Shown here piece by piece: positions 19,876 to 58,464 of a DNA stretch of 64,000 bases (the stretch's first letter is position 1; every line of letters starts with the position of its first letter). The stretch covers positions 47,519 to 111,518 of the forward strand of contig DASQLM010000413.1 in NCBI GenBank assembly GCA_035630015.1, written 5' to 3'. A program made the translations under genes and the position numbers. The notes under the pieces are model-generated. The model had not been told where the DNA came from, did not search any database, and worked only from the letters and a program-made list of their open reading frames with translations. The stretch is from Thermoleophilaceae bacterium (GTDB taxonomy: Bacteria > Actinomycetota > Thermoleophilia > Solirubrobacterales > Thermoleophilaceae).

Positions 19876-20064
19876 CGCCTTCTTGACGGTTCCCCGTGGC
19901 GCGCGGCGAAAGGCCGTGCCACAATGCCCGCTCGGGAGCAAGGCAGGGGCACGTAGCGCCGAGGGAGTCCTCGCGGATCGAGTTCCCCGTGCCTGGGCAG
20001 GGATGTCGAGCGAAGGCGGGGATCGCGCGTGCTGGAAGACGGGCAGGGATTGCTGGGGCCCCCT

Positions 20065-21288
20065 ATGGCAGTGGGTGTCTCCGCGAAGCCACAGAAGGTG
20101 GCCGTGGTGGTGGGCGCACGGCCCAACTTCATGAAGATGGGCCCGGTGATGGCGGCCCTCAAGCAGCACCCGGACAGCTTCGATCCGCTGCTCGTCCATA
20201 CCGGCCAGCACTACGACGCCACGATGTCGAAGGTCTTCCTCGAGGAGCTGGGAATCGGCGATCCCGACTACTCCCTCGGGGCCGGGCAGGGCGGGGACGG
20301 CAACCAGACGGTTCGGATCATGGAACGGCTGCGCCCCGTGTTCGAGCGCGAGCGCCCCGACCTGATCCTGGTGCCCGGCGACGTGACGTCCACGCTGGCC
20401 GCCGCTCTGGTGGCGGTCGACATGGGCATCACCCTGGGGCACGTCGAGGCGGGCCTGCGCAGCTTCGACGACGGCATGCCCGAGGAGTGGAACCGCGTGC
20501 TCACCGACAGTGCCTCCGACCTGCTGTTCACACACTCGCCCGAGGCCCGCGAGTACCTGCTGAGCGAAGGCTGTCCCGAACGGTCGATCCACTACGTCGG
20601 CAACACCATGATCGACACGCTCGTGGCGCTGAGGCACCGGGTCCAGGACCAGCAGAGCGCGTTGCAGCACGGGATGACGGCAGGCGAGTACCTGCTGGTG
20701 ACCCTGCACCGGCCCGCGCTGGTGGATGGCCCGTTGCTGGAGCCCGTGATGGAGGAGCTCGTCCGGCTCTCGGCGGAGATCCCGGTGCTGTTCCCCGTGC
20801 ACCCGCGGACCCGGAAGGCCATCCAGCGGATGGACTGCGTGGCCGGCGCCGCCGGTTTGCGGCTGGTCGAGCCGCAGGGCTATCTCTCGTTCCTGAGCCT
20901 GCTGGAGGACGCCCAGGGTGTGCTCACCGACTCCGGGGGGATCCAGGAGGAGGCCACCTACCTCGGCGTGCCCTGCCTGACGCTGCGTGAGAACACCGAG
21001 CGCCCGGCAACGGTGACCACCGGCACGAACATGCTCCTGGGGCTGCGTCCGCACATGGTCGCCGAGGTGCCCGCGCTGCTGGAGGAGATCCGTGCCAAGC
21101 CGAGCCGGGTACCGCCGCTGTGGGACGGCCGTGCGGCGGAGCGGATCGTGAACGTGCTGGCCGCCCAGCCGCTGCACGCCGGCGCCACGGCGGCAGCCCC
21201 CGCGGCGCACCGCCAGGGCCACGCGGCCAACGAGCTGGTCCGGGCGACGCCCACGCCCACGCCGCCGCTGGCCGCCGAAGGCGTCTAG
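20065..21288 (+). CDS. wecB: UDP-N-acetylglucosamine 2-epimerase (non-hydrolysing WecB/MnaA type) with a ~40-aa Ala/Pro-rich C-terminal tail
   Basis: ORF 20029..21288, with the ATG at 20065 preferred (MAVGVSAKPQKVAVVVGARPNFMKM). Contains HTGQHYD, LVPGDVTST, HVEAGLRS and TDSGGIQEEA. Confidence 0.88.
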   Translation: MAVGVSAKPQKVAVVVGARPNFMKMGPVMAALKQHPDSFDPLLVHTGQHYDATMSKVFLEELGIGDPDYSLGAGQGGDGNQTVRIMERLRPVFERERPDLILVPGDVTSTLAAALVAVDMGITLGHVEAGLRSFDDGMPEEWNRVLTDSASDLLFTHSPEAREYLLSEGCPERSIHYVGNTMIDTLVALRHRVQDQQSALQHGMTAGEYLLVTLHRPALVDGPLLEPVMEELVRLSAEIPVLFPVHPRTRKAIQRMDCVAGAAGLRLVEPQGYLSFLSLLEDAQGVLTDSGGIQEEATYLGVPCLTLRENTERPATVTTGTNMLLGLRPHMVAEVPALLEEIRAKPSRVPPLWDGRAAERIVNVLAAQPLHAGATAAAPAAHRQGHAANELVRATPTPTPPLAAEGV

Positions 21289-25665: not shown

Positions 25666-27174
25666 ATGTCAGGAAGGGGCAGGGCGACTCAAGACGTGCA
25701 AGGCGAATCCACACCTTCAGTGGTGGCGGGAATGCCACCCCTCACCGGGGTAGTCGACGAGCTGGCGCCGCCGGACCGGGCGCCCGCGACCCCCGAGGCC
25801 GGGGAGGGCGCTCGTCCGGCGCGGACGCTGAACCTCGATCACCGCTACCGGCGCGCGCTGGCGCTGGCCGACGTGCTGGCCTGCGCGTTCGCGGTCACGC
25901 TGTGCATCGGCCTGCTCGGCGCGGGCGACCAGGTCTCGGCCGGGGCGCTGGTATCGCTGCCGCTCGTGGTCGTGATCAGCAAGCTCCTGGGCCTGTACGA
26001 CCGTGACGAGCTCGTGCTGCGCAAGTCGACGCTCGAGGAGGCGCCGCGGCTCTTCCAGCTGGCCACGCTCTGCACGCTCGTCCTGTGGATAGCGGAGAGC
26101 CCGCTCAAGCTCGGTGAGCTCGGCGGGGACCAGGTCCTGGCGTTGTGGATCGTCCTCCTCCTGTCCCTGGTGGGCGCGCGGGTCGCGGCCCGCGGGCTGG
26201 CCCGGCGCAGCACGCCTGCCGAGCGCTGCCTCCTGCTGGGCGACCCGGAGGCGTGCGAGCGCGCCCGGCGCAAGATCGATGGGAGCGCGACGGTGAACGC
26301 CGAGGTCGTGGCCCAGATCACATCGGTGCGGATCGGCGAGACCGAGGTGCCGCTCGAGATGCTCGCCCAGCTGGCCGCCGACCACGAGATCCAGCGCGTG
26401 GTGATCGCGCCGCGCAGCACGGACCACGGCGACGTGCTCAACCTGGTCCGGGCGGTCAAGTCCATCGGCCTGAACGTGAGCGTGCTGCCCCGGCTGCTCG
26501 AGATCGTCGGGTCGTCCGTGGTCGTGGACGACATCGAGGGCCTGCGCGTCCTGGGCGTCGCGCGGTTCGGGCTGACGCGGTCCTCGCGCCTGGTCAAGCG
26601 CAGCCTGGACGTGGGCGGGTCATCCGTCGGGCTGCTGCTCCTGGCCCCGCTGCTGGTCGTCATCGCCGTGGCGGTCAAGATCGGCTCGCGCGGGCCCGTG
26701 CTGTTCCGCCAGCCCCGGATCGGCCGCGACGGGCAGACCTTCTCGGTGTACAAGTTCCGCACGATGGTCGTGGAGGCGGAGGACCTCAAGGAGGCCCTCC
26801 TGTCCCAGAACGAGGCGGAGGGCCTGTTCAAGATCGCCGACGACCCGCGCATCAACCGGGTCGGCCGGGTGCTGCGCCGCGCGTCCGTGGACGAGTTGCC
26901 CCAGCTGTTCAACGTGCTCAAGGGCGAGATGAGCCTGGTGGGGCCCCGCCCGCTGGTCCGCGAGGACGACTCGCAGATCGAGGGCTGGGACCGCCACCGC
27001 CTGCACCTGACGCCCGGGATGACCGGGCCGTGGCAGATACTGGGGCCCGCGCGGCTGCCCCTGAACGAGATGGTCAAGCTGGACTATCTCTACGTGGCCA
27101 CCTGGTCGCTGTGGGGCGACATAAAGATCCTGGTGCGCACGTTCGCGTTCGTGCTGGGCCGCCAGGGCCTCTGA
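25666..27174 (+). CDS. Large polyprenyl-phosphate glycosyl-1-phosphate transferase (WbaP/CpsE type), copy 2
   Basis: 502 aa with the same architecture as 14079..15635. Contains YRRALALADVL, KLLGLYDRDELVLRKSTLEEAP, LFRQPRIGRDGQTFSVYKFRTM and DELPQLFNVLKGEMSLVGPRP. An alternative ATG at 25732 is possible. Confidence 0.9.
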   Translation: MSGRGRATQDVQGESTPSVVAGMPPLTGVVDELAPPDRAPATPEAGEGARPARTLNLDHRYRRALALADVLACAFAVTLCIGLLGAGDQVSAGALVSLPLVVVISKLLGLYDRDELVLRKSTLEEAPRLFQLATLCTLVLWIAESPLKLGELGGDQVLALWIVLLLSLVGARVAARGLARRSTPAERCLLLGDPEACERARRKIDGSATVNAEVVAQITSVRIGETEVPLEMLAQLAADHEIQRVVIAPRSTDHGDVLNLVRAVKSIGLNVSVLPRLLEIVGSSVVVDDIEGLRVLGVARFGLTRSSRLVKRSLDVGGSSVGLLLLAPLLVVIAVAVKIGSRGPVLFRQPRIGRDGQTFSVYKFRTMVVEAEDLKEALLSQNEAEGLFKIADDPRINRVGRVLRRASVDELPQLFNVLKGEMSLVGPRPLVREDDSQIEGWDRHRLHLTPGMTGPWQILGPARLPLNEMVKLDYLYVATWSLWGDIKILVRTFAFVLGRQGL

Positions 27175-28321: not shown

Positions 28322-29380
28322 CTACCGCAGGGAGCGGCGTCCGGGGGAAGGTGCGCAGGGGGAGCTGCTGCACAGATGCAGGGGCAGCAGCTGGAGCCGG
28401 TCGAACGGGAACCGGGCCAGCATCCGCCAGGAGGGGACGCCGCGGTAGAGCCCCCGCGCGCCCGTGTAGGGAGAGCGGGTCCGGGGCGAGGGCGCCTCCA
28501 GGTAGAACGCCAGTGAGCCACCCGTCCTGTCACGCACGATCATCCCGTGGCGCTGTGCGGCCTCGGCCAGGATGCGGGTGACGCGAGGAAGCCGGAGCCG
28601 GTCCAGGTTCACCCGAGGGTCCAGCCGCAGGCGAGCGCCGGCCGGGATGCAGTTGCGTTTCGAGGACGTCCCGTCGGTCCGCTGGGCTGGCCATGAGAAG
28701 ACCTTGCGGCAGGGGTTGGCCACGGCGACGGCCAGCGCGTGGTCCACCCGGCCGCGACGCAGTTCCGCGCGCGTCACCGTGCCGGCGGCCACCGGGAGGC
28801 TGGTGGCGGTGGAGCCCCAGTTCCAGCCGTTGGTGCCGGACAGCCCCGGCCAGGCGCCGGCGGTGTAGTAGCCGGGGTTGCGTGAGACGCCGCGGATCAC
28901 GCCGCCCCAGCTGGCGTGCCAGCCGTCGGCCCGGCGGTGGGCCCGCCAGAACTCCCACAACGTGTCGGTCGCGGGCTGGTAGACCGTCATGTGGCCGTCG
29001 GATCCACTGGCCGCCGCGGCCGCTTCCGGGATCGGCACACCACCGGCCAGGGCCGCCCGCAGGGGGTCGCCCCAGCGGCCGGTGTCCAGGGTGAGGCGGA
29101 CCCGCCGTGCGTTGGCCGGGACGCGGTAGAGAGGGGTGCTGTAGCGGTTGGCCTGGATGTTCGGGTACAGGTTCCGCCGCGCGATCGTGCCCCGGATCTC
29201 GCCGGTCAGCGCCCGTACGCGCTGCCGTGAGGTGGGGTCGAGCGGAGTATTCGCCGAGAGGCGCGCGTTCCAGATGCTGTCGGCCGCGAACAGCCGGTCC
29301 GCGGGGGCGGCATCGGCGGCTTGGGGCGCGGCCACGCAGACCAGCGCCAGCGCCAGGGCGGCGCGGCGAAACGACCGCAT
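28322..29380 (-). CDS. Secreted protein of unknown family, paralog C
   Basis: ORF 28322..29401. The ATG at 29380 gives a typical signal peptide, MRSFRRAALALALVCVAAPQAADA. It carries the same conserved blocks as paralogs A and B. Confidence 0.75.
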   Translation of the reverse strand: MRSFRRAALALALVCVAAPQAADAAPADRLFAADSIWNARLSANTPLDPTSRQRVRALTGEIRGTIARRNLYPNIQANRYSTPLYRVPANARRVRLTLDTGRWGDPLRAALAGGVPIPEAAAAASGSDGHMTVYQPATDTLWEFWRAHRRADGWHASWGGVIRGVSRNPGYYTAGAWPGLSGTNGWNWGSTATSLPVAAGTVTRAELRRGRVDHALAVAVANPCRKVFSWPAQRTDGTSSKRNCIPAGARLRLDPRVNLDRLRLPRVTRILAEAAQRHGMIVRDRTGGSLAFYLEAPSPRTRSPYTGARGLYRGVPSWRMLARFPFDRLQLLPLHLCSSSPCAPSPGRRSLR

Positions 29381-29487
29381 GTGGGAGCGGGGACGGGACA
29401 CTCGTGTCCCATCGGCCGGTAGGCGCCCGCCCTCCAGCCCGGCCGCCCGCGTTTGGACGCCTGTCCACCGGGCCGGCCAGGCGGGTT

Positions 29488-30261
29488 ATGGTGCGCCCGG
29501 TGAGCGGGCTGCACGTGGTCATCCTGGCTGCCGGGAAGGGGAGCCGGCTCGGCGCCCTTGCGGCCGACCGGCCCAAGTGGCTGCTCGACGTCGGCGGCAG
29601 CCCGATCGCCGATCGGCAGATGGCGGCGGTGGCCGGCGCCCGCGAGCGCGACGCGGCCTCCCTGGCCTCGGTGCGTGTGGTGACCGGGCACGCCGACTCG
29701 GCGGTGGCGGCCTACCTGGGCGCCGAGGACGATGTCCAGCTGGTGCACAACCCCCGCTACGCCGATCTGAACAACTGGTACTCGGTGCTGGTGGCGCTGC
29801 GTTCCATCCCCGACGCCGGCGGCGGCGTGGCGGTGATCAACAGCGACCTGTTCGCCCCGGGCCCGTGGATCCAGGCCTTCCTCGAGTCGGCCGCGTCCAC
29901 CGAACACGAGGCGCTGATCGCGGTCGACATGGAACGGCAGCTGACCGACGAGTCGATGAAGGTCTCCGCCTCGGGGGGCGAGCTGGAGGCCATCGGGAAG
30001 GTGGGGATCGAGGACCCGGTCGGCGAGTACGTGGGCATGCTGATGGCCCGAGGCGGGGCGCTGGCCCGCTTTCGCGAGACGCTCGAGGGGTTCGAGGGCG
30101 TGGCCGAGCACGCGGACGAGTGGTACGAGCGGGGGGTGGGGCTGACCGCCGCCGAGGGAGTGCCCTGGACGGTCTGGCCCACGCTGGACACCGGCTGGGT
30201 CGAGATCGACGACGACGGCGACCACGCCGCCGCCGAGCGGCTGGCCGCCGCGGAGGCCTGA
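29488..30261 (+). CDS. Sugar- or polyol-phosphate nucleotidyltransferase (NTP_transf_3 / LicC / IPCT-like). Candidate CTP:glycerol-phosphate cytidylyltransferase.
   Basis: Distal part of ORF 29107..30261, from the ATG at 29488. Contains HVVILAAGKGSRLG ... KWLL ... NWYSVL ... AVINSDL ... WVEIDD. Substrate is inferred from the neighbouring genes only. Confidence 0.7.
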   Translation: MVRPVSGLHVVILAAGKGSRLGALAADRPKWLLDVGGSPIADRQMAAVAGARERDAASLASVRVVTGHADSAVAAYLGAEDDVQLVHNPRYADLNNWYSVLVALRSIPDAGGGVAVINSDLFAPGPWIQAFLESAASTEHEALIAVDMERQLTDESMKVSASGGELEAIGKVGIEDPVGEYVGMLMARGGALARFRETLEGFEGVAEHADEWYERGVGLTAAEGVPWTVWPTLDTGWVEIDDDGDHAAAERLAAAEA

Positions 30262-30264
30262 CCG

Positions 30265-31320
30265 GTGCGGGAGCGCACCATCGCCATCCCCCGCCTGCTC
30301 AACGTGGGCGCGGGGTGCCTGTCGGCGCTGGAGCCGCTGCTGCGCGAGGCCGCCTTCGACCTGCACGCGGTCTGCGTGGGGGCGGGGGAGGGTCCCTCGG
30401 TGCAGTTCGCGGACGCCGCCGTCGAGGGACTTCGCGGAGCGGGGATCGAGCCACTGGAGGTCCACGGGCTGTCGGGCCGGCTTGATCAGGCCGCGGAGCT
30501 GGCCGCCCGGGTGATCGAGGACGGCGTAACCCTGCTGGTGGCGGTCGGCGGCGGGCGCGTGATCGACACCGTCAAGCTGGCGGCCGCGCGGACGGGCACG
30601 GACCTGGTCAGCGTCCCCACGGCGATCTCCCACGACGGCATCAGCTCGCCGGTGGCGTCGCTGGTGCCCAAGGACGGCCCGCGCCAGTCCTACGCCGCGG
30701 CGATGCCCGGCGGCATCATCGTCGACATCGACGTGATCGGATCGGCGCCGCCGCGCACGCTGCGCGCCGGGGTCGGCGACCTGGTCAGCAACCTGACCGC
30801 GCTCATGGACTGGCGGCGCGCGGACGCCCTCGGGCACGACCGCTACGACGCCTTCTCGGCCATGATCGCTGAGCACGCGGCCCGGCCGGTGCTGGACATC
30901 GAGGAGCTCTCCACGGCCGCCAGCCACGAGCTCGTGGCGAAGGGGCTGCTGATGAGCGGGCTCGCGATGGCGGCGGCCGGTACCAGCCGGCCGTGCTCGG
31001 GCGCGGAGCACCTGATCAGCCACGGACTTGACGAGCGTCTGGGCGACCGGGCGGCCATGCACGGCGAGCAGGTGGCCCTGGGCACGCTGGTGGCCGCCGA
31101 GGCGCACGGCTCGCCGATGCGGGCGACGCTCGTGGAGTTCTTCGACCGCCTGGAGCTGCCGTGCCGGCCCGGCCAGCTGGGCATCGGCGACGCTGAGTTG
31201 GAGGACGCGATCCTGGGCGCTCCCGCAACCCGCCCGGACCGCTACACGATCCTGACCGACGTGCTGGAACAGGACGGCGACGTGCCCGCGCTGCTCGAGC
31301 GCGCGTTCGCGAAGGGCTAG
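30265..31320 (+). CDS. Iron/zinc-dependent alcohol dehydrogenase superfamily, sn-glycerol-1-phosphate dehydrogenase-like (EgsA/AraM type)
   Basis: 351 aa with a GTG start. Contains LLVAVGGGRVIDTVKLAA, VPTAISHDGISSP, GVGDLVSNLTALMDW, SGAEHLISHGLD and HGEQVALGT. The D/H/H metal-ligand pattern and spacing match G1P dehydrogenases as I recall them. Confidence 0.65.
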   Translation: MRERTIAIPRLLNVGAGCLSALEPLLREAAFDLHAVCVGAGEGPSVQFADAAVEGLRGAGIEPLEVHGLSGRLDQAAELAARVIEDGVTLLVAVGGGRVIDTVKLAAARTGTDLVSVPTAISHDGISSPVASLVPKDGPRQSYAAAMPGGIIVDIDVIGSAPPRTLRAGVGDLVSNLTALMDWRRADALGHDRYDAFSAMIAEHAARPVLDIEELSTAASHELVAKGLLMSGLAMAAAGTSRPCSGAEHLISHGLDERLGDRAAMHGEQVALGTLVAAEAHGSPMRATLVEFFDRLELPCRPGQLGIGDAELEDAILGAPATRPDRYTILTDVLEQDGDVPALLERAFAKG

Positions 31321-31325
31321 GCCGG

Positions 31326-32441
31326 ATGGGGTTGCTCGCCCGGGTGCCCGGGCTCAGGCAGGTCCCGCAGGTGCTCGGCCCCGTGCTGGACGACGTGATC
31401 CTGTTCGAGAGCTGGCGTGGGCAGTACTCGGACAATCCGCGGGCGATCTCGGAGGAGCTGCACGGGCGCGGCACGCACCACCGCCATGTCTGGGTGATCG
31501 ACCCGGCTCTGGCCCCCGGGGTGCCGGACTGGGTGGAGACCGTCACCCCGGGCAGCCGCGGGCACCTGGCGATGATGGGGCGCGCCGGCCACCTGGTCAC
31601 GAACACGACGGTGCTCGGGTTCCACCACAAGCGCCCGGGCACCCGCCTCATGCAGACCTGGCACGGCACGCCGCTCAAGCGCATCGGCTTCGGGATCCCG
31701 CGTGACGGCTCCCGCGCGGCGCGCCAGGCGGTGGACACCCTGCGCCACAACGTGAAGCGGTGGGACCTGCTCCTGTCGCCGAACCGGTTCAGCACGCCGA
31801 TCTTCCGCGAGGCGTTCGAGTACGAGGGGCCGATCGAGGAGACCGGCTACCCCCGCAACGACCTGCTGGTGGGCCCTCACGGCGACGCGGTGCGCGAGCG
31901 GACCCGATCGGCGCTCGGCATCGCCCCCGGCCAGCGGGTGGTCCTGTACGCGCCGACCTTCCGCGACTCGGTGCAGTTCGCGCTCGAGCCGCAGGTCGAC
32001 CGGCTGGCCCAGGAGCTGGGCGAGTCGCACGTGGTGCTGCTGCGCACCCACAAGGTCGATGCCGGGGTCGCGCGCACGGGCCGCTTCGTCGACGTGTCCG
32101 CCTACCCCGACAACCGCGAGCTCTACCTGGCGGCCGACGTGCTGGTCACCGACTACTCCTCGGTCATGTTCGACTTCGCGGTCACGGGCAAGCCGATGGT
32201 GTTCTTCACCTACGACCTGGCCGACTACCGCGACCGCGCGCGCGGCTTCTATTTCGACCTCGAGGCGGAGGCGCCGGGGCCGCTCGTGGCGACGGCCGAG
32301 GAGCTCGCCGAGGCGGTTGCCGGGGCCGACGCGGATGCGCCCCGCCTCCGGGAGGCCTATCAGTGCTTTGCCGAGCGCTTCTGCCACCTGGAGGACGGGC
32401 GGGCGTCGGCCCGCGTGGTCAACCTGCTGCTGGCGGGCTAG
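31326..32441 (+). CDS. CDP-glycerol glycerophosphotransferase family protein (TagF/TagB-like), copy 1
   Basis: 371 aa containing FESWRGQYSDNPRAI, WHGTPLKRIGF, GYPRNDLL, VLYAPTFRD, DVLVTDYSSVMFDFAVTGKPMVFF and RGFYFD. Confidence 0.85.
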   Translation: MGLLARVPGLRQVPQVLGPVLDDVILFESWRGQYSDNPRAISEELHGRGTHHRHVWVIDPALAPGVPDWVETVTPGSRGHLAMMGRAGHLVTNTTVLGFHHKRPGTRLMQTWHGTPLKRIGFGIPRDGSRAARQAVDTLRHNVKRWDLLLSPNRFSTPIFREAFEYEGPIEETGYPRNDLLVGPHGDAVRERTRSALGIAPGQRVVLYAPTFRDSVQFALEPQVDRLAQELGESHVVLLRTHKVDAGVARTGRFVDVSAYPDNRELYLAADVLVTDYSSVMFDFAVTGKPMVFFTYDLADYRDRARGFYFDLEAEAPGPLVATAEELAEAVAGADADAPRLREAYQCFAERFCHLEDGRASARVVNLLLAG

Positions 32442-33136
32442 GCGGCCCTACGGCAGACGTACAGGTCGTTGCGGAGCGGGTCCGGGCGCGGTACGAGGCC
32501 GTAGCGCTCGATCGAACCGTCGGGTAGGTCGTAGGCGTACTCGGAGACCGTGACCTCGAAGCCGGCGCCCCCGAGCCGGTCGACCAGGTCGCGGCCGTAG
32601 ACGCGTACGTGGTCGTCCTGCGAGAACAGCCTCAGGCGCTCGGCCGGGTCGGTTACGGACGGGTCCTCGAAGGTGGTGGCCATGTCGTAGTTCACCGGCG
32701 TCTGGACCACCACGGTCCCACCGTCGGCCAGCACGCGGCCCATCTCGGACATCGCCGCGGCGTCGTCGGCGACGTGCTCGAGGACGTGGCTGCACAGGAC
32801 CAGGTCGAAGCGGCCGTCCTCGAACGGGAGATCCGTGATGTCGGCCTTCACCTCGGCCCGTGGGCTGAACAGGTCGGCCGACACGTATTCCCCGGCGGCG
32901 TCGCGGAGGGGCCGCTCGAGCGCGATCTCGGGCGCGAAGTGCAGCACCCGCAGGGCACCCTCCGGTAGTGGGGTCTCGGCGTTCAGGTAGAGCCAGAGCA
33001 CCCGGTGGCGCGGGCGCGATCCGCACTTCGGACAGTCCGCGCTGAAGGGCCGCGAGGCAACCGTCTTGAAGCGCCGGAAGCGGCCGCCGCAGCACGGGCA
33101 CTCGTATTTCCGCCCCCAAGACCGCAGGTGGCCCAT
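32438..33136 (-). CDS. Class I SAM methyltransferase with an N-terminal zinc-ribbon, paralog of 21374..22030
   Basis: ORF 32438..33217, with the ATG at 33136 preferred (MGHLRSWGRKYECPCCGG ... CPKCGSRPRHR). Contains DITDLPFEDGRFDLVLCSHVLEHVADD and SQDDHVRVYG. Confidence 0.75.
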   Translation of the reverse strand: MGHLRSWGRKYECPCCGGRFRRFKTVASRPFSADCPKCGSRPRHRVLWLYLNAETPLPEGALRVLHFAPEIALERPLRDAAGEYVSADLFSPRAEVKADITDLPFEDGRFDLVLCSHVLEHVADDAAAMSEMGRVLADGGTVVVQTPVNYDMATTFEDPSVTDPAERLRLFSQDDHVRVYGRDLVDRLGGAGFEVTVSEYAYDLPDGSIERYGLVPRPDPLRNDLYVCRRAA

Positions 33137-33140
33137 CCGG

Positions 33141-33863
33141 TCAGGCAGGGCGCTCGAGTCGCACGACGCAGTACTGGGTGCCCTCGCCCACCACGTGGGC
33201 GACCTCCAGGCCGGCATCGCTCGCGGCTTGCCTCAGGTCGGGCATCGACACGGCGGAGCCGAGCCAGTTCGGGTTGCCCAGGCCACTCGCGCCCTTGTGG
33301 TTGCCGCGCCCGGCGCGCCACCACATCCGCGCCCGCCGGAGCGGGGAGGGGGAGTGCACCGCGGGATCGGTGGACACCTGGAATGCGCTCCAGCCTCCGG
33401 GACGCAGGATGCGGCCCATCTCGCGAACGTATCCGAGCGTGATGGCGGCCTCGGGCACGTGCTGGAAGACCACGTGCGACACGCAGGCGTCGGCAGAGCT
33501 GGAGTCGATGCCCGCGAGCGAGGTGCCGTCCCCGTGCAGCCAGGTCACTCCCTCCAGGGAGGGGTTGAGCTCACGGGCCTGCTGGAGCATCTCGGCCGAC
33601 ACGTCAAGGGCTCGGACGGTGGCGGCACGCGCGGCGAGCCCGCGTGTCAGGCGTCCGAGCCCGCAGCCGATCTCCACCACGTCATCGCCCGGCCCGACTG
33701 CGGCCCCGGCCATGTTCAGCAGCGTGGCCAGGTCCTCCTCGCCCTGGGCCCAGAAGCGGTCGGTGTCGGGGTTCTCGAAGTCCAGCCGGCTGTCGACGAA
33801 GAAGTACGCGTTCTCCTTGGCGCGCTCGTCCCAGAAGCTCGCCATCTCGTCCCCGGTGCCCAT
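33141..33863 (-). CDS. Class I SAM-dependent methyltransferase
   Basis: 240 aa containing VVEIGCGLGRLTRGL (motif I), ALDVSAEML, ADACVSHVVFQHV and LRPGGW. Confidence 0.8.
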   Translation of the reverse strand: MGTGDEMASFWDERAKENAYFFVDSRLDFENPDTDRFWAQGEEDLATLLNMAGAAVGPGDDVVEIGCGLGRLTRGLAARAATVRALDVSAEMLQQARELNPSLEGVTWLHGDGTSLAGIDSSSADACVSHVVFQHVPEAAITLGYVREMGRILRPGGWSAFQVSTDPAVHSPSPLRRARMWWRAGRGNHKGASGLGNPNWLGSAVSMPDLRQAASDAGLEVAHVVGEGTQYCVVRLERPA

Positions 33864-33925: not shown

Positions 33926-34651
33926 ATGCCCTACGAGCCCCGTACCTACTGGAGCAAGCGCCTTGATGAGCACTTCTCGCTCCAGGGCGTGGGCCACGTG
34001 GCGTACACCGACGGGTACAACCGCTGGCTCTACCGGGCCAAGCGCGATGCACTCGACAAGGCGCTGGCGGGCGTCGGTCAGGGTCCCGACGCCCTGGACG
34101 TCGGCTCCGGCGTCGGCTGGGTCGTGGCCGAGCTGCGCGCCCGCGGGCTCCACGTGCAGGGCTGCGACATCACCGACGTCGCGGTGGAGCGGCTGACCGA
34201 GCGCTTCCCCGACTCGCGCTTCTTCCAGGCCTCGGTGGGAGAGCGGCCGCTGCCGTGCGAGGACGACAGCTTCGACGTGATCACGATGATGGACGTGGCG
34301 TACCACATCACCGACGACGCGCTTTGGAAGGCGGCAGTGGCGGACCTGGGCCGGGTGCTCAGGCCCGGCGGGCGCCTGGTGGTCACCGACGGGATGCGCG
34401 ACGAGCCGGCCAACCCGGCGAGCCACGTCCGGTTTCGCACGCGCGCGCAGTGGACGGAGGCCGCGCGGCCCGCGGGGATGGAGATGCTCGGACAGGGATC
34501 CCTGTACCGCTGGCTGTCGCGCGACCGTGGCCTGCGTGGGTGGCGCCGGCTTCCCGACGGGCCGCGGGGCGCGGTGGAGTACGCGCTCGAGCGGTTGCAC
34601 GCCGGGTCGCCCCACATGTCATGGGCCAGCCTGGAGAAGCAGCCCGCCTGA
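33926..34651 (+). CDS. Class I SAM-dependent methyltransferase
   Basis: 241 aa containing ALDVGSGVGWVVAEL, FDVITMMDVAYHI and LRPGGRLVVTD. Confidence 0.8.
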   Translation: MPYEPRTYWSKRLDEHFSLQGVGHVAYTDGYNRWLYRAKRDALDKALAGVGQGPDALDVGSGVGWVVAELRARGLHVQGCDITDVAVERLTERFPDSRFFQASVGERPLPCEDDSFDVITMMDVAYHITDDALWKAAVADLGRVLRPGGRLVVTDGMRDEPANPASHVRFRTRAQWTEAARPAGMEMLGQGSLYRWLSRDRGLRGWRRLPDGPRGAVEYALERLHAGSPHMSWASLEKQPA

Positions 34652-34673
34652 GGCCATCCAGGGTCGCGCAGCC

Positions 34674-35648
34674 ATGACCGAGCCTGAAGTCAGCGTGATC
34701 GTCCCCGCCCGCAACGCCGTGGAGACGCTGCCACGCCTGTTCGATGCCCTGGACCGGTCGACCTTCGAGGGTGAGCACGAGGTGATCCTGGTGGACGACG
34801 GGTCCACCGACGGCACACCGGAGCTCGCGCGGGAGCGGGGCGCCGCCGTCGTGTCGCTGCAGGGCCAGGGGGGGCCGGCGCAGGCACGCAACGCGGGGCT
34901 TGAGGCGGCACGCGGACCGCTGATCGCCTTCACCGACGCCGACTGCGAACCGTGCGCCCAATGGCTGTCGGAGGTGGTGGCCGCGCTCCGGGCCGGTGCG
35001 GGCCTGGTGCGCGGTCCCGTCAAGCCGGATCCGCGGGCCACCGTGGGCCCGTACGACCGCACGCTGTGGATCGACGAGTCCTCACCGCTGTTCGAGACCG
35101 CAAACTTGGCCGTGACGCGCGCCGTGGCCGACCGCGTCGGGGGCTTCATCCCGTTCGCGCCCGGGCCCGGCGCCGCGCCGGGTCTGCGCCCGCGCGTGGA
35201 CGAGGGCCACTTCGGCGAGGACGTGGTGTTCGGGTGGTCGGCCCGCCGGGCCGGGGCCCGGGTGGTCTACGCCGAGCGCGCCCTGGTGCACCACGCGGTG
35301 TTCCCGCGCGGGCCGCGTGGGTTCATCGCGGAGCGGCGCCGGCTGCGGTTCTTTCCGGCGCTGGTGCGTGAGATCCCGGAACTGCGCGGCGCACTGCCGG
35401 GCCGGTACTTCCTGGCCACGCGCAGCGCGCAGGTCGACCTGGCGGTGGCAGGGGTGGCGCTCGCGCTGGCACGGCGCCGCGTCTGGCCGCTCGCGGCGGT
35501 GGTGCCCTACGCCACCGCGCGGCTGCAATGGCGATCGGCCTGGAGGCGCTCCGTGGCGCGCCGGAACCTGGCCTACGTAGCCGCGGACGGGGTCGGTCTG
35601 GTGGCCCTGGTCCGGGGCAGTCTGGCCGCCCGCAGACTGCTTCTCTGA
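34674..35648 (+). CDS. GT2-family glycosyltransferase
   Basis: ORF 34527..35648 from the ATG at 34674. Contains VSVIVPARN, ILVDDGSTDGT, ARNAGL and FTDADCEP. Confidence 0.85.
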   Translation: MTEPEVSVIVPARNAVETLPRLFDALDRSTFEGEHEVILVDDGSTDGTPELARERGAAVVSLQGQGGPAQARNAGLEAARGPLIAFTDADCEPCAQWLSEVVAALRAGAGLVRGPVKPDPRATVGPYDRTLWIDESSPLFETANLAVTRAVADRVGGFIPFAPGPGAAPGLRPRVDEGHFGEDVVFGWSARRAGARVVYAERALVHHAVFPRGPRGFIAERRRLRFFPALVREIPELRGALPGRYFLATRSAQVDLAVAGVALALARRRVWPLAAVVPYATARLQWRSAWRRSVARRNLAYVAADGVGLVALVRGSLAARRLLL

Positions 35649-35675: not shown

Positions 35676-37232
35676 GTGGGCGCGGCCGGCCGGGACACCA
35701 TGGACGCGGAGCCGCCCGATGCCGTGACCGTCGCCGGCCCGGTCGACACGGGCCGGTTCGACAACACCACCGGCGAAGGACGCCGGGGCCGGGCCGCGCG
35801 CGGGACGGTCATCAACTCGGCCTTCCTGATCGGCCTGAACATGCTCGCCCTGATCAAGGGCTTCGCGGTCGCCGGCTTCGTCTCGGTGTCCGACTACGGC
35901 GTATGGGGGCTGGTGATCGTCTCGTTCACGACCCTGTATGGCCTGATCCAGGTCGGGGTCAACGACAAGTACATCCAGCAGGACCACGAGGACCAGGAGA
36001 GCGCGTTCCAGCTCGCGTTCACGCTCCAGCTCGCCCTCAGCGGCGCGTTCACGGTGCTGATCGTGGCCGTGATGCCCCTGTACGCGCTCGCCTACGACAC
36101 CAACGAGATCCTGTACCCCGGTTGGGTCCTGGCGCTGGCGATGCCCGCCAGCGCCTTCCAGGCCCCGCTGTGGACCTTCTACCGGCGGATGGACTACCTG
36201 CGCCAGCGCAAGCTCCAGGTGTTCGACCCCGTGGTCGGCTTCGTGGTCACTCTCGGCCTGGCCGTCGCCGGCTTCGGCGTCTGGTCGCTGGTGCTGGGCA
36301 CCGTCCTGGGCGCGTGGACCGCGGCCGCAGTCGCGGTCAGGGCCTCTCCGTACAAGCTGCGGCTGCGCTACGAGCCGGGCACGCTGCGCGAGTACGCGAC
36401 CTTCTCGGGGCCGCTGATGTTCCAGGGGCTGTGCGTCGCGGTCATCGGGTTCGGCCCGGTGCTGGTGGCCCAGCGCGCGCTCGGCACCGCCGCGATCGGG
36501 GCGATGGCGATCGCCAACAACATCTCCGTGTACACCCAGAAGGTCGACGAGGTGGTCACGAACACGCTCTACCCCGTGATCTGCGCGGTCAAGGACCAGG
36601 CCGCCCTGATGCAGGAGGCGTTCCTCAAGTCAAACCGGATGGGCATGCTCTGGGCCACCCCGACGGGACTCGCGATCTTCCTGTTCGCTCCCGACCTCGT
36701 GCACTTCGTGATCGGGTCGCGTTGGGACGAAGCCATCCCGGTGATCCAGGCCTTCGGCCTGATCGCCGTGTTCAACCAGATCGCCTTCAACTGGACTGCC
36801 TTCTTCCGGGCCATCGGTGACACCAAGCCGGTGGCCGTGGGCGCGTTCGCCATGGCCGTGGTGGTCACGGGCATCGCGGTGCCGCTGCTGGCCGCCTACG
36901 GGCTGGTGGGCTTCGCCGTGGGCATGGCAGTGGGCAACGTGGTGCTGGTCGGGGTGCGGGTGGGATATCTGACCCGGATAGTCCCGCTGGGGCCGATGGC
37001 GCGCAACGTGATCCGGGGCATGCTGCCCGCCGCGGCGGCGTTGAGCGTCACGGGCGCGGCGCGGCTGGCTACCTGGGGCGGCGAACGCACCGAGCTCCAC
37101 GCCGCGGCCGAGCTGGCGCTGTTCCTGGTCCTGTCGATGGCCATCACGCTGGTGGCGGAGCGGGGCCTGCTCAACGAGTTCCGCGGCTACCTGCGCCGGC
37201 GCCCGGGGGCAGCGGCAGGCCAGCCGGGATGA
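35676..37232 (+). CDS. wzx: Wzx-type oligosaccharide flippase (polysaccharide transporter / MOP superfamily), copy 1
   Basis: 518 aa with more than 10 hydrophobic segments. N-terminal RGTVINSAFLIGLNMLALIKGFAVAGFV and mid-protein FSGPLMFQGL are typical of the PST family. An alternative ATG start lies at 35700. Confidence 0.8.
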   Translation: MGAAGRDTMDAEPPDAVTVAGPVDTGRFDNTTGEGRRGRAARGTVINSAFLIGLNMLALIKGFAVAGFVSVSDYGVWGLVIVSFTTLYGLIQVGVNDKYIQQDHEDQESAFQLAFTLQLALSGAFTVLIVAVMPLYALAYDTNEILYPGWVLALAMPASAFQAPLWTFYRRMDYLRQRKLQVFDPVVGFVVTLGLAVAGFGVWSLVLGTVLGAWTAAAVAVRASPYKLRLRYEPGTLREYATFSGPLMFQGLCVAVIGFGPVLVAQRALGTAAIGAMAIANNISVYTQKVDEVVTNTLYPVICAVKDQAALMQEAFLKSNRMGMLWATPTGLAIFLFAPDLVHFVIGSRWDEAIPVIQAFGLIAVFNQIAFNWTAFFRAIGDTKPVAVGAFAMAVVVTGIAVPLLAAYGLVGFAVGMAVGNVVLVGVRVGYLTRIVPLGPMARNVIRGMLPAAAALSVTGAARLATWGGERTELHAAAELALFLVLSMAITLVAERGLLNEFRGYLRRRPGAAAGQPG

Positions 37233-46953: not shown

Positions 46954-48111
46954 GTGACGGACCAGGCTCCGACGAACGGCACCATCGGCCACGTGGTGCG
47001 CGAGTACCTGCCGCGCTCCGCCACGTTCATCTACACGGTCCTGCGCCACCAGCGTGGGTTCGCGCCGGTCGTGTTCGCCAAGCGCGCGATGAACCTGGAC
47101 GAGTTCCCACTGGACGACGTCCGGCATCTGACTCCGATGGAGCCGGTGCTGCACCGAGCACGGCGCAAGGGCACCGCGCTCGCCTCGGGCTACACCGGTA
47201 CCTACCCGCACCGGATCGCCACGCACGCCCGCAGCGAGGGCTGCGTGGCCCTGCACGCCCACTTCGGCTGGTCGGGCGTGGCGGCCGTGCCCGCCGCGAA
47301 GCGCCTGGACATCCCTCTGGTGACCACGTTCTACGGCAGGGACCTCTCGGATCCCGAGCGTGCCAATTCGCGCCGCAGCCCGCATCGGCGGCTGTTCGCC
47401 GAGGGCACGCTGTTCATGTGTGAGGGACCGGCCATGGCCAAGCACCTTGGCGAGACGGGGTGCCCGCCCGAGCGCATCCGGATCCAGCGGATCGGGCTGG
47501 ACGTGTCGCGATGGCCGTTCGACCCGCCCGTGCGCCGGCGGCCGCTGATCATCGTGCAGATCAGCCGGTTCGTGGAGAAGAAGGGGCTGGACCTCTCGCT
47601 GCGGGCATTCGCCGCCGCGCGCGACGAGCTCGGCCCGAGCGAGCTCTGGATGGTGGGCGACGGGCGGCTGCGGGAGGACCTCGAAGCGCTGGCGGCCCGG
47701 CTGGGCATTGCCGAGCACGTCCACTTCCTGGGCATGGTCTCCTACTCGGAGTACCAGGAGGTGATGCGTCGGGCGCACATCTGCCTGCAGCCCAGCCGGA
47801 CCGCGCGGGACGGGGACACCGAGGGCGGCGCGCCCACCGTGCTCCTGGAGATGCAGGCCGCCGGGATCCCGGTGGTCAGCACCCGCCACGCCGACATCCC
47901 GTTCGTGGTGGCCGACCCGGGCGAACTGGTCGAGGAGGAGGACGTGGAGGGCATCTCGGATGCCCTGATCCGCGTCGCCGGGCTGAGCGACGCGGACTGG
48001 CAGGAGCGGGCTCGCCGGGGGCGCGCGGTGGTCCAGGAGCGCCACGACGCGGCCACGCTGGCCTCGAAGCTCGACGAGATCTACGCGGAGGCGCTGCGGC
48101 TGCACGGCTAG
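46954..48111 (+). CDS. GT4-family glycosyltransferase
   Basis: Distal part of ORF 46585..48111, from the GTG at 46954. Contains ISRFVEKKGLDL and GDTEGGAPTVLLEMQAAGIPVVSTRHADIPFVV. Confidence 0.82.
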   Translation: MTDQAPTNGTIGHVVREYLPRSATFIYTVLRHQRGFAPVVFAKRAMNLDEFPLDDVRHLTPMEPVLHRARRKGTALASGYTGTYPHRIATHARSEGCVALHAHFGWSGVAAVPAAKRLDIPLVTTFYGRDLSDPERANSRRSPHRRLFAEGTLFMCEGPAMAKHLGETGCPPERIRIQRIGLDVSRWPFDPPVRRRPLIIVQISRFVEKKGLDLSLRAFAAARDELGPSELWMVGDGRLREDLEALAARLGIAEHVHFLGMVSYSEYQEVMRRAHICLQPSRTARDGDTEGGAPTVLLEMQAAGIPVVSTRHADIPFVVADPGELVEEEDVEGISDALIRVAGLSDADWQERARRGRAVVQERHDAATLASKLDEIYAEALRLHG

Positions 48112-49616
48112 GAGGCCGGGGCCGGCTTGCGGCCCGGCCGCACGGCCCCCACGATCAGCATCGCGTCCGCCCACGCGGCCGGGAACAGTCGCCAGATCAC
48201 CGTCACGGCGATCGCGGCGGCGACCGGCACGGCGGCGAGCAGCACCAGCACGTCACCGACGCCGGCGGCCGACAGGCGGTCCACCAGCGGGTAGGTCACC
48301 GCGAGCAGGGCGGCGCCCGCGCACGCACCCGGTGCCACCTCGGCCCACAGCCCGCTGACGGGAATGCCCAGCATGCGCTGGAGCAGGAAGTAGTGGGTGG
48401 CTCCGAAGTTCACCGTCTGCACCGCGAGCACCCCGAGGCAGACCGCGGTCAGGCCGTGCGGGGCCATCACGTAGACCGCCAGCGCGTACACGGCCAGCGT
48501 GACCAGGTTGTAGATCATCAGCTCGCGCGGCTTGCCGGCGGCCAGCATCAGGGGCCCGATGCCGGTCACGATGGCCGCTCCCATGCCCACGATCGCCAGG
48601 AGCTGGGCGGGCACCACCGCGCCTTCCCAGGCCGACCCGTAGAGGAAGGGGATGAACACGGGCGCGATGGCGATGAACGTGGCCAGCGGCGGCACCACCA
48701 GCGCGGCGTGAAGGCGGACCACACGGGTCCTGATGGCACGCATGTCCTTGCGGGATGCCGTGCGCGAGAAGATCGGGAACGTCACGCGCAGCATGACCGT
48801 CGTGATCTTCGTCTGGTACTCCACGCCCAGCTGGTAGGCCCGCCAGTAGAGGCCCACGTCGCCTGCGGACATCCGCCCGGCCAGGATCACGTAGTCGACC
48901 TGGCGGAAGACGGTGTAGGCCAGGGTCGCCAGCCCGCTGTGGATGCCGAACGACGCGATCCGGGCGGCTGCGGCCCGGTGCCAGCGGGGAGCCGTGAAGG
49001 GCACGTAGGCCATCGCCATGATCGACCCGAGCCCGGCGGAGACCAGCGCGCCGGCCACCAGGGCCTCGGCGTTGGCGTCGATCGTCGCGGCCAGCACGAC
49101 GGAGGCGATCGTGCCGCACACCATCGGCGCCACCTGGACCGCGGCCACGCGCCGGAACTGGAGCTCGCGCTGCAGCCGCGCCTGGGAGACCGCACCGGGC
49201 GCGGCCAGGAGGAACGTCAGCGAGCTGAGCTCGATCAGCGCGCCGATCCGGTCCCCGAGGACAGGCGGCACGGCGTAGCGGCCCACGACGAAGGTCACGG
49301 CGGTCAGGACGACGCCCATCAGGAGCGCGAGCAGCGTCGCGCTCTGGAGGTCGGAGCGCTCGGCGGAGCGCATCTGGACCAGCGCAGCCCCGATGCCCTG
49401 GCTCATCACCACGCCTGCGATCGCGGCCACGATCAGGGCCACGGCGCCGCGGCCGAACTCGGCCGGCACGATCAGGCGGGCGAGCGCCACGCTGGCCGTG
49501 AGCGTGAACAGCTCGGCGACCACGCGCGACAACGTGATCCAGCGAATCCCCGCCAGCGTGGCCTTCCGCAGCTCGGCACGAGAGTGGCCGGCCGGCGGTT
49601 GATCGGAGCCGCTCAC
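48108..49616 (-). CDS. wzx: Wzx-type oligosaccharide flippase (PST/MOP family), copy 2
   Basis: 502 aa with a GTG start and ~12 or more hydrophobic segments. Contains LAGIRWITLSRVVAELFTLTASVALARLIVPAEFG and LLQRMLGIP. Confidence 0.8.
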   Translation of the reverse strand: MSGSDQPPAGHSRAELRKATLAGIRWITLSRVVAELFTLTASVALARLIVPAEFGRGAVALIVAAIAGVVMSQGIGAALVQMRSAERSDLQSATLLALLMGVVLTAVTFVVGRYAVPPVLGDRIGALIELSSLTFLLAAPGAVSQARLQRELQFRRVAAVQVAPMVCGTIASVVLAATIDANAEALVAGALVSAGLGSIMAMAYVPFTAPRWHRAAAARIASFGIHSGLATLAYTVFRQVDYVILAGRMSAGDVGLYWRAYQLGVEYQTKITTVMLRVTFPIFSRTASRKDMRAIRTRVVRLHAALVVPPLATFIAIAPVFIPFLYGSAWEGAVVPAQLLAIVGMGAAIVTGIGPLMLAAGKPRELMIYNLVTLAVYALAVYVMAPHGLTAVCLGVLAVQTVNFGATHYFLLQRMLGIPVSGLWAEVAPGACAGAALLAVTYPLVDRLSAAGVGDVLVLLAAVPVAAAIAVTVIWRLFPAAWADAMLIVGAVRPGRKPAPAS

Positions 49617-49677
49617 AGCGCCGCCACGTTAGGGTGCCGGGGCCAAGCGCGCGGCAGGAGAGGTGGACAGGTGGGCG

Positions 49678-51395: not shown

Positions 51396-52652
51396 CTACC
51401 GTCCCAGCGGGCCCGACTGGGCGTCCGCGATCCAGCCGGACAGCCTGCCCGTCTCGGTGTGGACGTCGGCGATGCGGGCCACGTGGGTGCGCGCCATCGC
51501 CCCGAGCTCCCTGCGCCGTTCGGGGTCCTGCGCGAGAAGCTCGCCGATGGCGTCGGCCAGACCATCGTGGTCACCCGGGCGCACCAGCCGGCCCCACGGC
51601 TCCTCGACCAGCTCCGGCAGCCCCACCTCGTCGGAGGCCACCACGCACAGCTGCATCGCCATCGCCTCCTTGACCACCACCGGCATCGAGTCACGGTCGC
51701 CGTCGGCGGCCACGACGCACGGCATGCACAGGAGGTCGGCGCGCTCCAGCAGCGCGCGGATCCCGGCCTGGGGCAGTGCCCCGAGCAGGCTGACGCGGTC
51801 GCCGACCCCGAGCCGGCCGATCTCCGCCTCCAGCCGCCCGCGCTCCGGACCCTCGCCGGCGATGGAGATGGTCACATCGGGGAGCCGTGCCGCGGCGCGC
51901 ACGAGGTGGATGAAGCCCTTCTTCTCGACCAGGCGGCCCACCGCCGCAACGTGGCGGCCGCCCGGCAGCGGCGCGGAGCGCTCGAACGCCGACGGGTCGA
52001 CGCCCATGATCTGCTTGAAGATCGACTGCGCGTGATCGGGCCCGGCCACCTCACGCAGATGGGCGACCGTGTAGTCGCAGCCCGAGGTCGAGAAGTGGCT
52101 GCGCCTGAGGCGGCCGGCCAGGGTGTCCGGCCGGAGGTAGATGTCGTACGCATGCGCGGTGAGGCTCGTCGGCGCCCCGATCACGCGGGCGATCCGATGC
52201 GCCTCGTCGGCGTCGACGGTCGCGAAGTGCGTGTGCAGGTGGACGGCCGGCGTGAGCCGTGCCAGCCGCCGCGCGCGTGGGGCCAGCTGGCGGAGCGGAA
52301 CCCCGCGCCTGTCGACCCGTGCTCGCTGCCCGCGTACGTCTGCCAGTGCCCGGAGTGGATGCCGGGTGATCACCCAGAGCAGGGCCCGCAGACGCTCGGG
52401 CCGGGTCTCGTCCTCGACCCAGCTGACCGGCACCCCCTTCGGTGCCAGGGCCGACGAGTCGCCCGATCGGCGACGCGCCTCGACGGAGACGCGGTGCCCG
52501 AGCGCGGTGAGGGCCGACGCCTCGAGGGCCACGAACGTCTCGGACAGGACGGGGAACCGGTGGACGAAGATGCAGACGGCGGGCTTAATGGGGTGCGAGC
52601 CTAACCACCCTGCGTTACCTAGAGTCTCCTCCGTGCAGGGTCGGCCACGCAT
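51396..52652 (-). CDS. GT4-family glycosyltransferase (WcaL-like)
   Basis: Distal part of ORF 51396..52979. Contains VCIFVHRFPVLSETFV, GRLVEKKGF and DSMPVVVKEAMAMQLCVVASDEVGLPELV. The start is uncertain. The nearest canonical start, the ATG at 52652, overlaps the divergent GT2 start. An ATT at 52589 would give the family-typical N-terminus (M)KPAVCIFVHRFP. Confidence 0.78.
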   Translation of the reverse strand: MRGRPCTEETLGNAGWLGSHPIKPAVCIFVHRFPVLSETFVALEASALTALGHRVSVEARRRSGDSSALAPKGVPVSWVEDETRPERLRALLWVITRHPLRALADVRGQRARVDRRGVPLRQLAPRARRLARLTPAVHLHTHFATVDADEAHRIARVIGAPTSLTAHAYDIYLRPDTLAGRLRRSHFSTSGCDYTVAHLREVAGPDHAQSIFKQIMGVDPSAFERSAPLPGGRHVAAVGRLVEKKGFIHLVRAAARLPDVTISIAGEGPERGRLEAEIGRLGVGDRVSLLGALPQAGIRALLERADLLCMPCVVAADGDRDSMPVVVKEAMAMQLCVVASDEVGLPELVEEPWGRLVRPGDHDGLADAIGELLAQDPERRRELGAMARTHVARIADVHTETGRLSGWIADAQSGPLGR

Positions 52653-58434: not shown

Positions 58435-58464
58435 CGGTTCGAGTCTACGGTGGGGGCCGTGACG

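Follow-up and report, generated by a model that had tools for sequence, protein, structure and literature searches.

A compact operon of a G1PDH-like dehydrogenase, a LicC-type nucleotidyltransferase and a TagF-like transferase in a Thermoleophilaceae bacterium: a candidate TagD-independent route to CDP-glycerol

We analyzed a 64,000-nt stretch of DNA (hereafter, the window) from a soil actinobacterium of the Thermoleophilaceae (GenBank assembly GCA_035630015.1, contig DASQLM010000413.1, positions 47,519 to 111,518), in which three consecutive genes encode a nucleotidyltransferase (P0001), a protein resembling sn-glycerol-1-phosphate dehydrogenase (G1PDH; P0002) and a TagF-like glycerophosphotransferase (P0003). 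The three genes form one compact operon. We consider it fairly probable that this operon both supplies and uses activated glycerol phosphate without TagD, by way of sn-glycerol-1-phosphate (G1P) and cytidine diphosphate (CDP)-1-glycerol. It would probably constitute a variant of the CDP-glycerol/teichoic-acid-type pathway with inverted stereochemistry. Comparative genomics supports the interpretation given in a first-pass annotation of the window, which had suggested that glycerol phosphate of the G1P type, or less specifically another polyol phosphate, is made, activated and transferred.

In the proposed pathway, P0002 would convert dihydroxyacetone phosphate (DHAP) to G1P by a reduction that draws on NAD(P)H and a Zn/Ni site, as do archaeal EgsA and Bacillus AraM. 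P0001 would condense G1P with cytidine triphosphate (CTP) to form CDP-glycerol in the sn-1 configuration (CDP-1-glycerol), and P0003, probably together with a paralogue encoded further downstream, would pass the glycerol phosphate of this donor on to a glycan, with release of cytidine monophosphate. The probable acceptor is a lipid-linked repeat unit of the Wzx/Wzy polysaccharide encoded around the trio, which would be modified on the cytoplasmic face. We infer the substrate DHAP, the handedness of the product, the nucleotide CTP and the acceptor.

The three genes and their products

The genes of the trio are co-directional, and their coordinates (Table 1) were taken from the listing of open reading frames and from frame-specific GC content at third codon positions (GC3). 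As the first-pass annotation had noted, they are consecutive and tightly spaced, with gaps of 3 nt (30262-30264) and 5 nt (31321-31325). The window has a GC content of 72% and the three frames have a GC3 of 0.91-0.95, as is typical for real genes there. The ATG of P0001 lies at 29488; the public gene call begins four codons downstream, at the GTG at 29500. The trio is flanked upstream by a divergent gene and downstream by a convergent methyltransferase gene that overlaps the stop of P0003 by 4 nt. The intergenic region between the divergent gene and P0001 is presumed from its position to contain the promoter. A sigma-70 consensus was not found when the operon was scanned, which is uninformative for an actinobacterium with 72% GC, and the sole terminator-like site in the promoter and terminator scan falls inside P0003 and is equally uninformative. 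The motifs that had been quoted for these proteins were all recovered: VILAAGKGSRLG in P0001, and GGGRVIDTVK, GDLVSNLTALMDW, SGAEHLISH and HGEQVALG in P0002.

P0002 matched the Pfam family Fe-ADH_2 (PF13685) with 109 bits, relative to a cut-off of 28, and its best NCBIfam match was the G1PDH model NF002022 (252 bits), with the glycerol dehydrogenase model reaching only 73 bits. Among proteins of solved structure, the archaeal G1PDHs 5fb3 (146 bits) and 4rgq (131 bits) scored highest, ahead of 9h4x (87 bits), which we take to be AraM-like, glycerol dehydrogenase GldA (at most 64 bits) and dehydroquinate synthase (29 bits). The metal ligands D172, H249 and H266 align with those of 5fb3 and 4rgq, and the motif G-T-S-R-P-C-S-G-A-E-H-L-I-S-H aligns with the solved G1PDHs. 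We compared six archaeal EgsA sequences with 38 transferase-paired homologues and found 39 columns that are jointly invariant or nearly so; among them are the D/H/H metal ligands, residues that GldA also has, and G1PDH-only positions. P0002 retains the positions that are found only in G1PDHs, namely S142, D182, S241-R242-P243-x-S245-G246 (an insertion relative to GldA), H253, D256, R323 and R326, and it also carries the G1PDH-specific RPDRYT motif, as archaeal EgsA does. The structures 5fb3, 4rgq and 9h4x likewise have the arginine of the Ser-Arg-Pro (SRP) motif. R242, R323, R326 and the histidine, all missing in glycerol dehydrogenase, would fit a phosphorylated substrate. P0002 is predicted to reduce DHAP stereospecifically to G1P.

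We then placed P0002 in a maximum likelihood tree of 95 homologues, which included archaeal EgsA sequences from the fetched loci and E. coli GldA as outgroup; AraM and Gtp1-3 were not part of it. P0002 falls within a clade of Solirubrobacterales (SH-aLRT, an approximate likelihood-ratio test, 99) of which every member adjoins the nucleotidyltransferase. This clade groups with sequences from Acidimicrobiia, Gaiellaceae and Streptomyces-type genomes, beside the archaeal EgsA clade, with deep branches that are poorly supported, and E. coli GldA is a distant outgroup. The earlier note had proposed that the dehydrogenase resembles G1PDH (EgsA/AraM) and that it should be placed among G1PDH, GldA and dehydroquinate synthase: profile, structure-database scores, motifs and tree all bear out the resemblance, and P0002 groups with the G1PDHs and with neither of the other two.

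One derived clade of the tree (support 98) does not possess the SRP arginine. The clade has as its typical member 3ce9, a Clostridial protein from structural genomics that was deposited as a "glycerol dehydrogenase", and it includes relatives of 3ce9 in Clostridia, in Lachnospiraceae and in one genome of the Ignavibacteriales. Its members adjoin or are fused to phosphatases of the haloacid dehalogenase (HAD) type (L027:9323-11041, L045:9233-11041 and L029:9699-11453) and represent a different functional group. We considered the loss of the arginine as a marker of a non-phosphorylated, Gtp1-like substrate and dropped it, because the 3ce9-like genes adjoin HAD phosphatases rather than kinases or transferases. 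Whether the substrate is phosphorylated can thus not be decided from this contrast, and the arginine is used here only as a shared feature of G1PDHs.

The nucleotidyltransferase P0001 matched NTP_transf_3 (PF12804) with 53 bits and is publicly annotated merely as an "NTP transferase domain-containing protein". We predicted its structure with AlphaFold from an alignment of 34 orthologues, which gave a mean confidence (pLDDT) of 95.6. Foldseek ranked PntC (6pd2), LicC (1jyk) and IPCT (2xme) at the top (E-values of 1e-13 to 1e-16, template modeling scores of 0.65-0.80), in line with the earlier description of a LicC/IPCT-type enzyme; GlmU and RmlA followed closely behind, with good scores as well. 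PntC, LicC and IPCT are phosphonate, phosphocholine and inositol-1-phosphate cytidylyltransferases, respectively, and thus all act on small phospho-compounds. Twenty columns are invariant over the 34 orthologues, and within the loop L-A-A-G-x-G-x-R-L the residues L13, A15, G16 and R20 are invariant and A14, G18 and L21 nearly so. P0001 thus shares with the LicC/PntC/IPCT enzymes its modeled fold and the G-x-G-x-R(L) loop, but it is only 19-23% identical to them in sequence, and these enzymes use phosphocholine, aminoethylphosphonate and inositol-1-phosphate, whereas P0001 is predicted to use glycerol-1-phosphate. Neither PF01467 nor TIGR01518 matched P0001 in searches of Pfam and NCBIfam, hence it does not have the HxGH-type fold of TagD. 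The P0001 orthologues are labeled "choline kinase" at JGI, probably an error inherited from LicA/LicC-type orthology groups.

P0003 matched Glyphos_transf (PF04464) with 339 bits over nearly the entire profile (positions 10-366 of 367). The TarF-like NCBIfam model reached 254 bits, the alignment to the whole catalytic domain of Staphylococcus epidermidis TagF (3l7i, residues 353-713) scored 209 bits, and TarL gave 94-95 bits. H113, located in the motif QTWHGTPLKR, which is identical in both proteins, and H242 align with the catalytic residues H444 and H584 of S. epidermidis TagF. P0003 was therefore rightly called a TagF-type glycerophosphotransferase, and by these residues it looks catalytically competent. 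Its single-domain size of 371 residues, like that of TarF and TagB, suggests that it would attach a single unit or a few and not build a long polymer.

Conservation of the pair and its relation to TagD

An orthologue of P0001 directly adjoins the dehydrogenase in 36 loci. These are distributed across Actinomycetota (Solirubrobacterales, Gaiellaceae, Acidimicrobiia, large genomes of Streptomyces size and small actinobacterial genomes), Thermoactinomycetaceae, Fictibacillus, Chloroflexota and two archaea of the Nitrososphaerota. We clustered all genes within 5 kb of the pairs and searched the recurrent clusters against Pfam. The recurrent partners were a CDP-alcohol phosphatidyltransferase (PF01066; 13 loci, plus four fusions to DUF5941), a TagF-like enzyme (nine loci) and an exporter pair of the ABC-2/ABC type (six to seven loci), and no kinase recurred within this distance. 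Because both recurrent transferase families consume CDP-activated alcohols, the P0001 type is expected to be a cytidylyltransferase acting directly on the product of the dehydrogenase, in which case this product must already be phosphorylated. The neighbors are independent evidence and support the prediction that the pair yields a CDP-alcohol; it is indirectly, through these recurrent families (PF01066 and PF04464), that CTP is predicted as the nucleotide used by P0001.

The distribution of TagD points to a functional replacement. A TagD-type gene (TIGR01518) was not found in the whole source assembly, which is 70% complete (3.40 Mb in 424 contigs), nor in a relative that carries the same trio (G071; 97% complete, single contig), in agreement with the previous remark that no TagD-like gene is seen. 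We examined 151 genomes of the same class and found strong full-length TagF genes in five of them. Three of these genomes (G122, G058 and G052) present TagD above the cut-off directly beside TagF and have no P0002 homologue; the other two, the source genome and G071, present the pair beside TagF. We then extended the analysis to 301 actinobacterial genomes that are at least 90% complete. The dehydrogenase was found in 40 of them (a tally that includes the three unpublished genomes G151, G195 and G262, which contributed no sequence to the analysis), TagD in seven and both in none, these counts being given without a statistic. The dehydrogenase was present in 20/21 genomes of one family and in 9/9 genomes of a family with genomes of Streptomyces size. 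Among the 19 genomes bearing TagF, 14 have the dehydrogenase, two have TagD, adjoining TagF, and three have neither. The pair and TagD are mutually exclusive in these samples, as expected of a functional replacement. It is about as likely as not that CDP-glycerol generally comes from the cytidylyltransferase/G1PDH pair, rather than from TagD, in Actinomycetota and in scattered members of the Bacillota, the Chloroflexota and the archaea.

It is possible to imagine that the adjacency is incidental: P0002 would make G1P for ether lipids, P0001 would activate an unrelated sugar-1-phosphate, and a TagD gene would have remained unassembled. The incompleteness of the source assembly and the good Foldseek scores of GlmU and RmlA could be taken in this sense, and actinobacterial G1PDH homologues have been noted in phylogenetic studies and read as possible lipid genes (PMC6431249, PMC5059525). 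We find this scenario hardly credible, since the pair adjoins in 36 loci from several phyla, since the nearly complete G071 has the trio and no TagD and since the dehydrogenase and TagD never occur together in the 301 genomes. Moreover, PcrB/GGGPS, the enzyme through which G1P would enter ether lipids, did not turn up in the source genome, nor above the family cut-off in five other carriers of the dehydrogenase (G071, G201, G213, G154 and G331, the last with a match of only 20 bits, below that cut-off), so that no lipid sink for G1P was detected.

The organization of the pair varies among lineages. In Thermoactinomycetaceae (Marininema and relatives; L016:8314-13578), a CDP-alcohol phosphatidyltransferase, the nucleotidyltransferase, the G1PDH-like gene, an ABC-2 permease, an ABC ATPase and a second CDP-alcohol phosphatidyltransferase follow one another, an order that looks like a system for a teichoic-acid-like polymer without TagF. 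In gut alphaproteobacteria (L030:9326-11513), a G1PDH-like gene that retains the SRP arginine lies between a HAD hydrolase and a 147-aa cytidylyltransferase of the TagD family (PF01467); the dehydrogenase is here combined with another cytidylyltransferase, following the same logic. In Nitrososphaerota, a nucleotidyltransferase of the P0001 type is paired with an additional, bacterial-like G1PDH paralogue (L053:9992-11919 and L026:3856-8017), and the L026 locus has genes for a polysaccharide flippase and a type I phosphodiesterase close by. A search for fusions of the transferase to the dehydrogenase yielded only a distant fusion to an FGGY kinase (38% identity, 96 bits), which lends no support and is only weak evidence of absence. 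The nearest relatives of the window are metagenome-assembled genomes of Solirubrobacterales and Thermoleophilia. All three genes are missing from a genome of the same genus (G029; 98% complete), hence the module is an accessory, locus-specific trait in this lineage.

Comparison with known pathways and alternative substrates

The closest functional parallel is the wall teichoic acid system of Bacillus and Staphylococcus (TagD/TarD with TagB/TagF/TarF), in which CDP-activated glycerol phosphate is likewise made and then transferred by a Glyphos_transf enzyme. The activator of that system has the PF01467/TIGR01518 fold, whereas a LicC/IPCT-fold transferase is found here, and its polymer is exported by TagGH, whereas the present genes lie in a Wzx/Wzy heteropolysaccharide cluster. 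In addition, its glycerol phosphate comes from the pool of glycerol-3-phosphate, in contrast to the dedicated G1PDH-like reductase of the trio, and the donor is therefore predicted to be enantiomeric.

Archaeal EgsA (4rgq, 5fb3) and Bacillus subtilis AraM share with P0002 the Fe-ADH_2 fold, the D/H/H metal site and the SRPxSG-EH and RPDRYT motifs, P0002 being nearer to the archaeal enzymes than to the AraM-like 9h4x. EgsA and AraM pair with GGGPS/PcrB, whereas P0002 pairs with a cytidylyltransferase and a glycan transferase; its product is therefore predicted to serve a wall glycan and not an ether lipid.

A third comparison involves pneumococcal Gtp1/Gtp2/Gtp3 and WchX (S. pneumoniae types 15 and 23F), where a reductase and a LicC-like cytidylyltransferase are likewise encoded in a Wzx/Wzy locus and glycerol phosphate is likewise a substituent of the repeat unit. 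To our knowledge, WchX is not a TagF-family enzyme. By analogy, an iron-containing alcohol dehydrogenase would reduce dihydroxyacetone to glycerol, a kinase would produce glycerol-2-phosphate and the transferase would form CDP-2-glycerol. Gtp1-3 constitute the one characterized pathway of bacteria in which a reductase and a LicC-like cytidylyltransferase jointly serve to activate a glycerol phosphate, and its biochemistry was reportedly worked out by Wang and colleagues in 2010. This route is nevertheless very improbable for the trio: it starts from dihydroxyacetone and needs the glycerol-2-phosphotransferase Gtp3, but no kinase gene lies in or beside the operon or recurs in the 36 related loci, and P0002 keeps the G1PDH-only arginines, which one would expect if its substrate is phosphorylated. 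PMC1391919 lists the gtp genes.

Alternatively, the same logic of reductase, cytidylyltransferase and transferase might apply to another alcohol. TarJ/TarI of Staphylococcus and Bcs1 of Haemophilus also combine a dedicated reductase of a keto-phosphate with a cytidylyltransferase to provide the donor of a TagF-family transferase. They differ from the trio in that TarJ is a medium-chain Zn-dependent alcohol dehydrogenase, TarI is IspD-like and the substrate is ribulose-5-phosphate. By this reasoning, P0002 would reduce a tetrulose or pentulose phosphate and the pair would produce a CDP-alditol comparable to the CDP-ribitol of TarJ/TarI. Phosphates of erythritol, arabinitol, mannitol and ribitol occur in the teichoic acids of actinomycetes, and the Glyphos_transf family includes ribitol-phosphate transferases such as TarL (95 bits against P0003). 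A gene of the mannitol dehydrogenase family (PF01232/PF08125) also adjoins TagF in four related loci of Solirubrobacterales/Thermoleophilaceae that carry the trio (L002:6802-8295, L004, L007 and L008). We consider a different alditol unlikely, because all active-site motifs common to archaeal G1PDHs are unchanged in P0002, because P0003 is far nearer to glycerol-phosphate enzymes (TarF and TagF) than to TarL and because the pair is exclusive with TagD, the CDP-glycerol synthase.

Several observations weigh against a route through G1P and CDP-1-glycerol, and the first two also favor another alditol. The score of P0002 is below the equivalog cut-off of NF002022 (252 relative to 413 bits), such that curated annotation would not name it a G1PDH; among 14 control genomes, this model matched in eight, three of which exceeded the cut-off. 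An archaeon (G429) encodes a canonical EgsA (446 bits) as well as a transferase-paired paralogue (288 bits), on contigs C9 and C12, and the paired clade could therefore have a different substrate instead of representing a dedicated copy. The phosphate-binding role of R242, R323 and R326 is read solely from their conservation, and as far as we could find, no enzyme of the transferase-paired clade has been assayed. The natural donor of known TagF enzymes is CDP-sn-3-glycerol, and a tree of TagF sequences does not cleanly split pair-linked from TagD-linked enzymes. This tree was rejected as a donor-specific test, with long branches and the enzymes of one genome (G302) nested among pair-linked ones. 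Finally, related genomes are not independent samples, and the absence of TagD from the source genome is weak given its completeness, the argument being carried by the complete relative G071.

Free glycerol-1-phosphate (Gro1P) and CDP-1-glycerol have been considered to be probably absent from bacteria, with phosphatidylglycerol as the origin of every bacterial Gro1P surface structure known (PMC8262930, 2021). According to the same study, the sn-1 enantiomer is accepted in vitro by such cytidylyltransferases and by one TagF-like capsule polymerase. The expected absence would not hold if bacteria have a dedicated route to CDP-1-glycerol, and a full-text search of the literature, in which subscription journals were mostly not covered, returned no description of a G1PDH/cytidylyltransferase pair or of such a route. 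If the pair is the general source of CDP-glycerol in the lineages named above, their glycerol-phosphate wall polymers would be built from G1P through CDP-1-glycerol and would be enantiomeric to the wall teichoic acids of Firmicutes. The bacterial homologues of "archaeal-type" G1PDH, which have long been cited in favor of archaeal-like lipids, would then serve cell-envelope glycopolymers instead, which bears on the debate about the "lipid divide". This would also explain how the donor is supplied in Actinomycetota, where TagF-type enzymes occur and TagD is almost always missing, and the stereochemistry decides which glycerophosphodiesterases and antibodies recognize such polymers. The value of the window is mainly to offer one clean and compact example with TagF directly attached.

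The glycan cluster and other genes of the window

The trio is embedded in a Wzx/Wzy-type surface-polysaccharide cluster, which probably supplies the acceptor glycan. Besides the genes listed in Table 1, this cluster encodes a TylF methyltransferase, a glycosyltransferase of family 8, many S-adenosylmethionine-dependent methyltransferases and a GT-C-like protein with a family 2 glycosyltransferase (GT2).

Table 1. Coordinates of the trio and of other features of the window
Feature	Positions	Strand	Description
P0001	29488-30261	+	257 aa, LicC/PntC/IPCT-type nucleotidyltransferase; proposed CTP:glycerol-1-phosphate cytidylyltransferase
P0002	30265-31320	+	351 aa, GTG start, G1PDH-like Fe-ADH_2 protein; proposed NAD(P)H-dependent DHAP reductase
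P0003	31326-32441	+	371 aa, single-domain TagF/TarF-type CDP-glycerol glycerophosphotransferase
Divergent intergenic region	29402-29487		86 bp; presumed promoter
Upstream flanking gene	28322-29401	-	Divergent from the trio
Downstream flanking gene	32438-33217	-	Methyltransferase, convergent with the trio
Surface-polysaccharide cluster	20029-45084		Wzx/Wzy type
UDP-GlcNAc 2-epimerase	20029-21288		Glycan cluster
Priming transferase	25666-27174		Bac_transf; glycan cluster
Glycosyltransferase	34527-35648		GT2; glycan cluster
Flippase	35676-37232		Polysacc_synt_3; glycan cluster
Second flippase	48108-49628	-	Near the P0003 paralogue
Glycosyltransferase	52141-53526	+	GT2; adjoins the P0003 paralogue
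P0003 paralogue	53523-54665	+	Second TagF-like glycerophosphotransferase; PF04464, 330 bits
Two-domain protein	56545-59664	-	1039 aa; glutamine-amidotransferase and asparagine-synthase domains

Further along the window, we found the second flippase, glycosyltransferases of families 1 (GT1) and 2, a Wzz-like protein and a Wzy_C protein. The P0003 paralogue lies 21 kb downstream of P0003, to which it is 50% identical over 361 residues, and likely uses the same donor as well. One donor module may therefore feed two different glycans with glycerol phosphate in this window. The paralogue adjoins GT2 and GT1 genes, with 51396-52979 on the minus strand also listed there, and the second flippase, a DegT aminotransferase and a GNAT acetyltransferase are encoded around it. 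Finally, a large gene within the glycan cluster (56545-59664) encodes a protein whose glutamine-amidotransferase and asparagine-synthase domains occupy the C-terminal 600 residues and whose N-terminal stretch of approximately 440 residues has no Pfam match.

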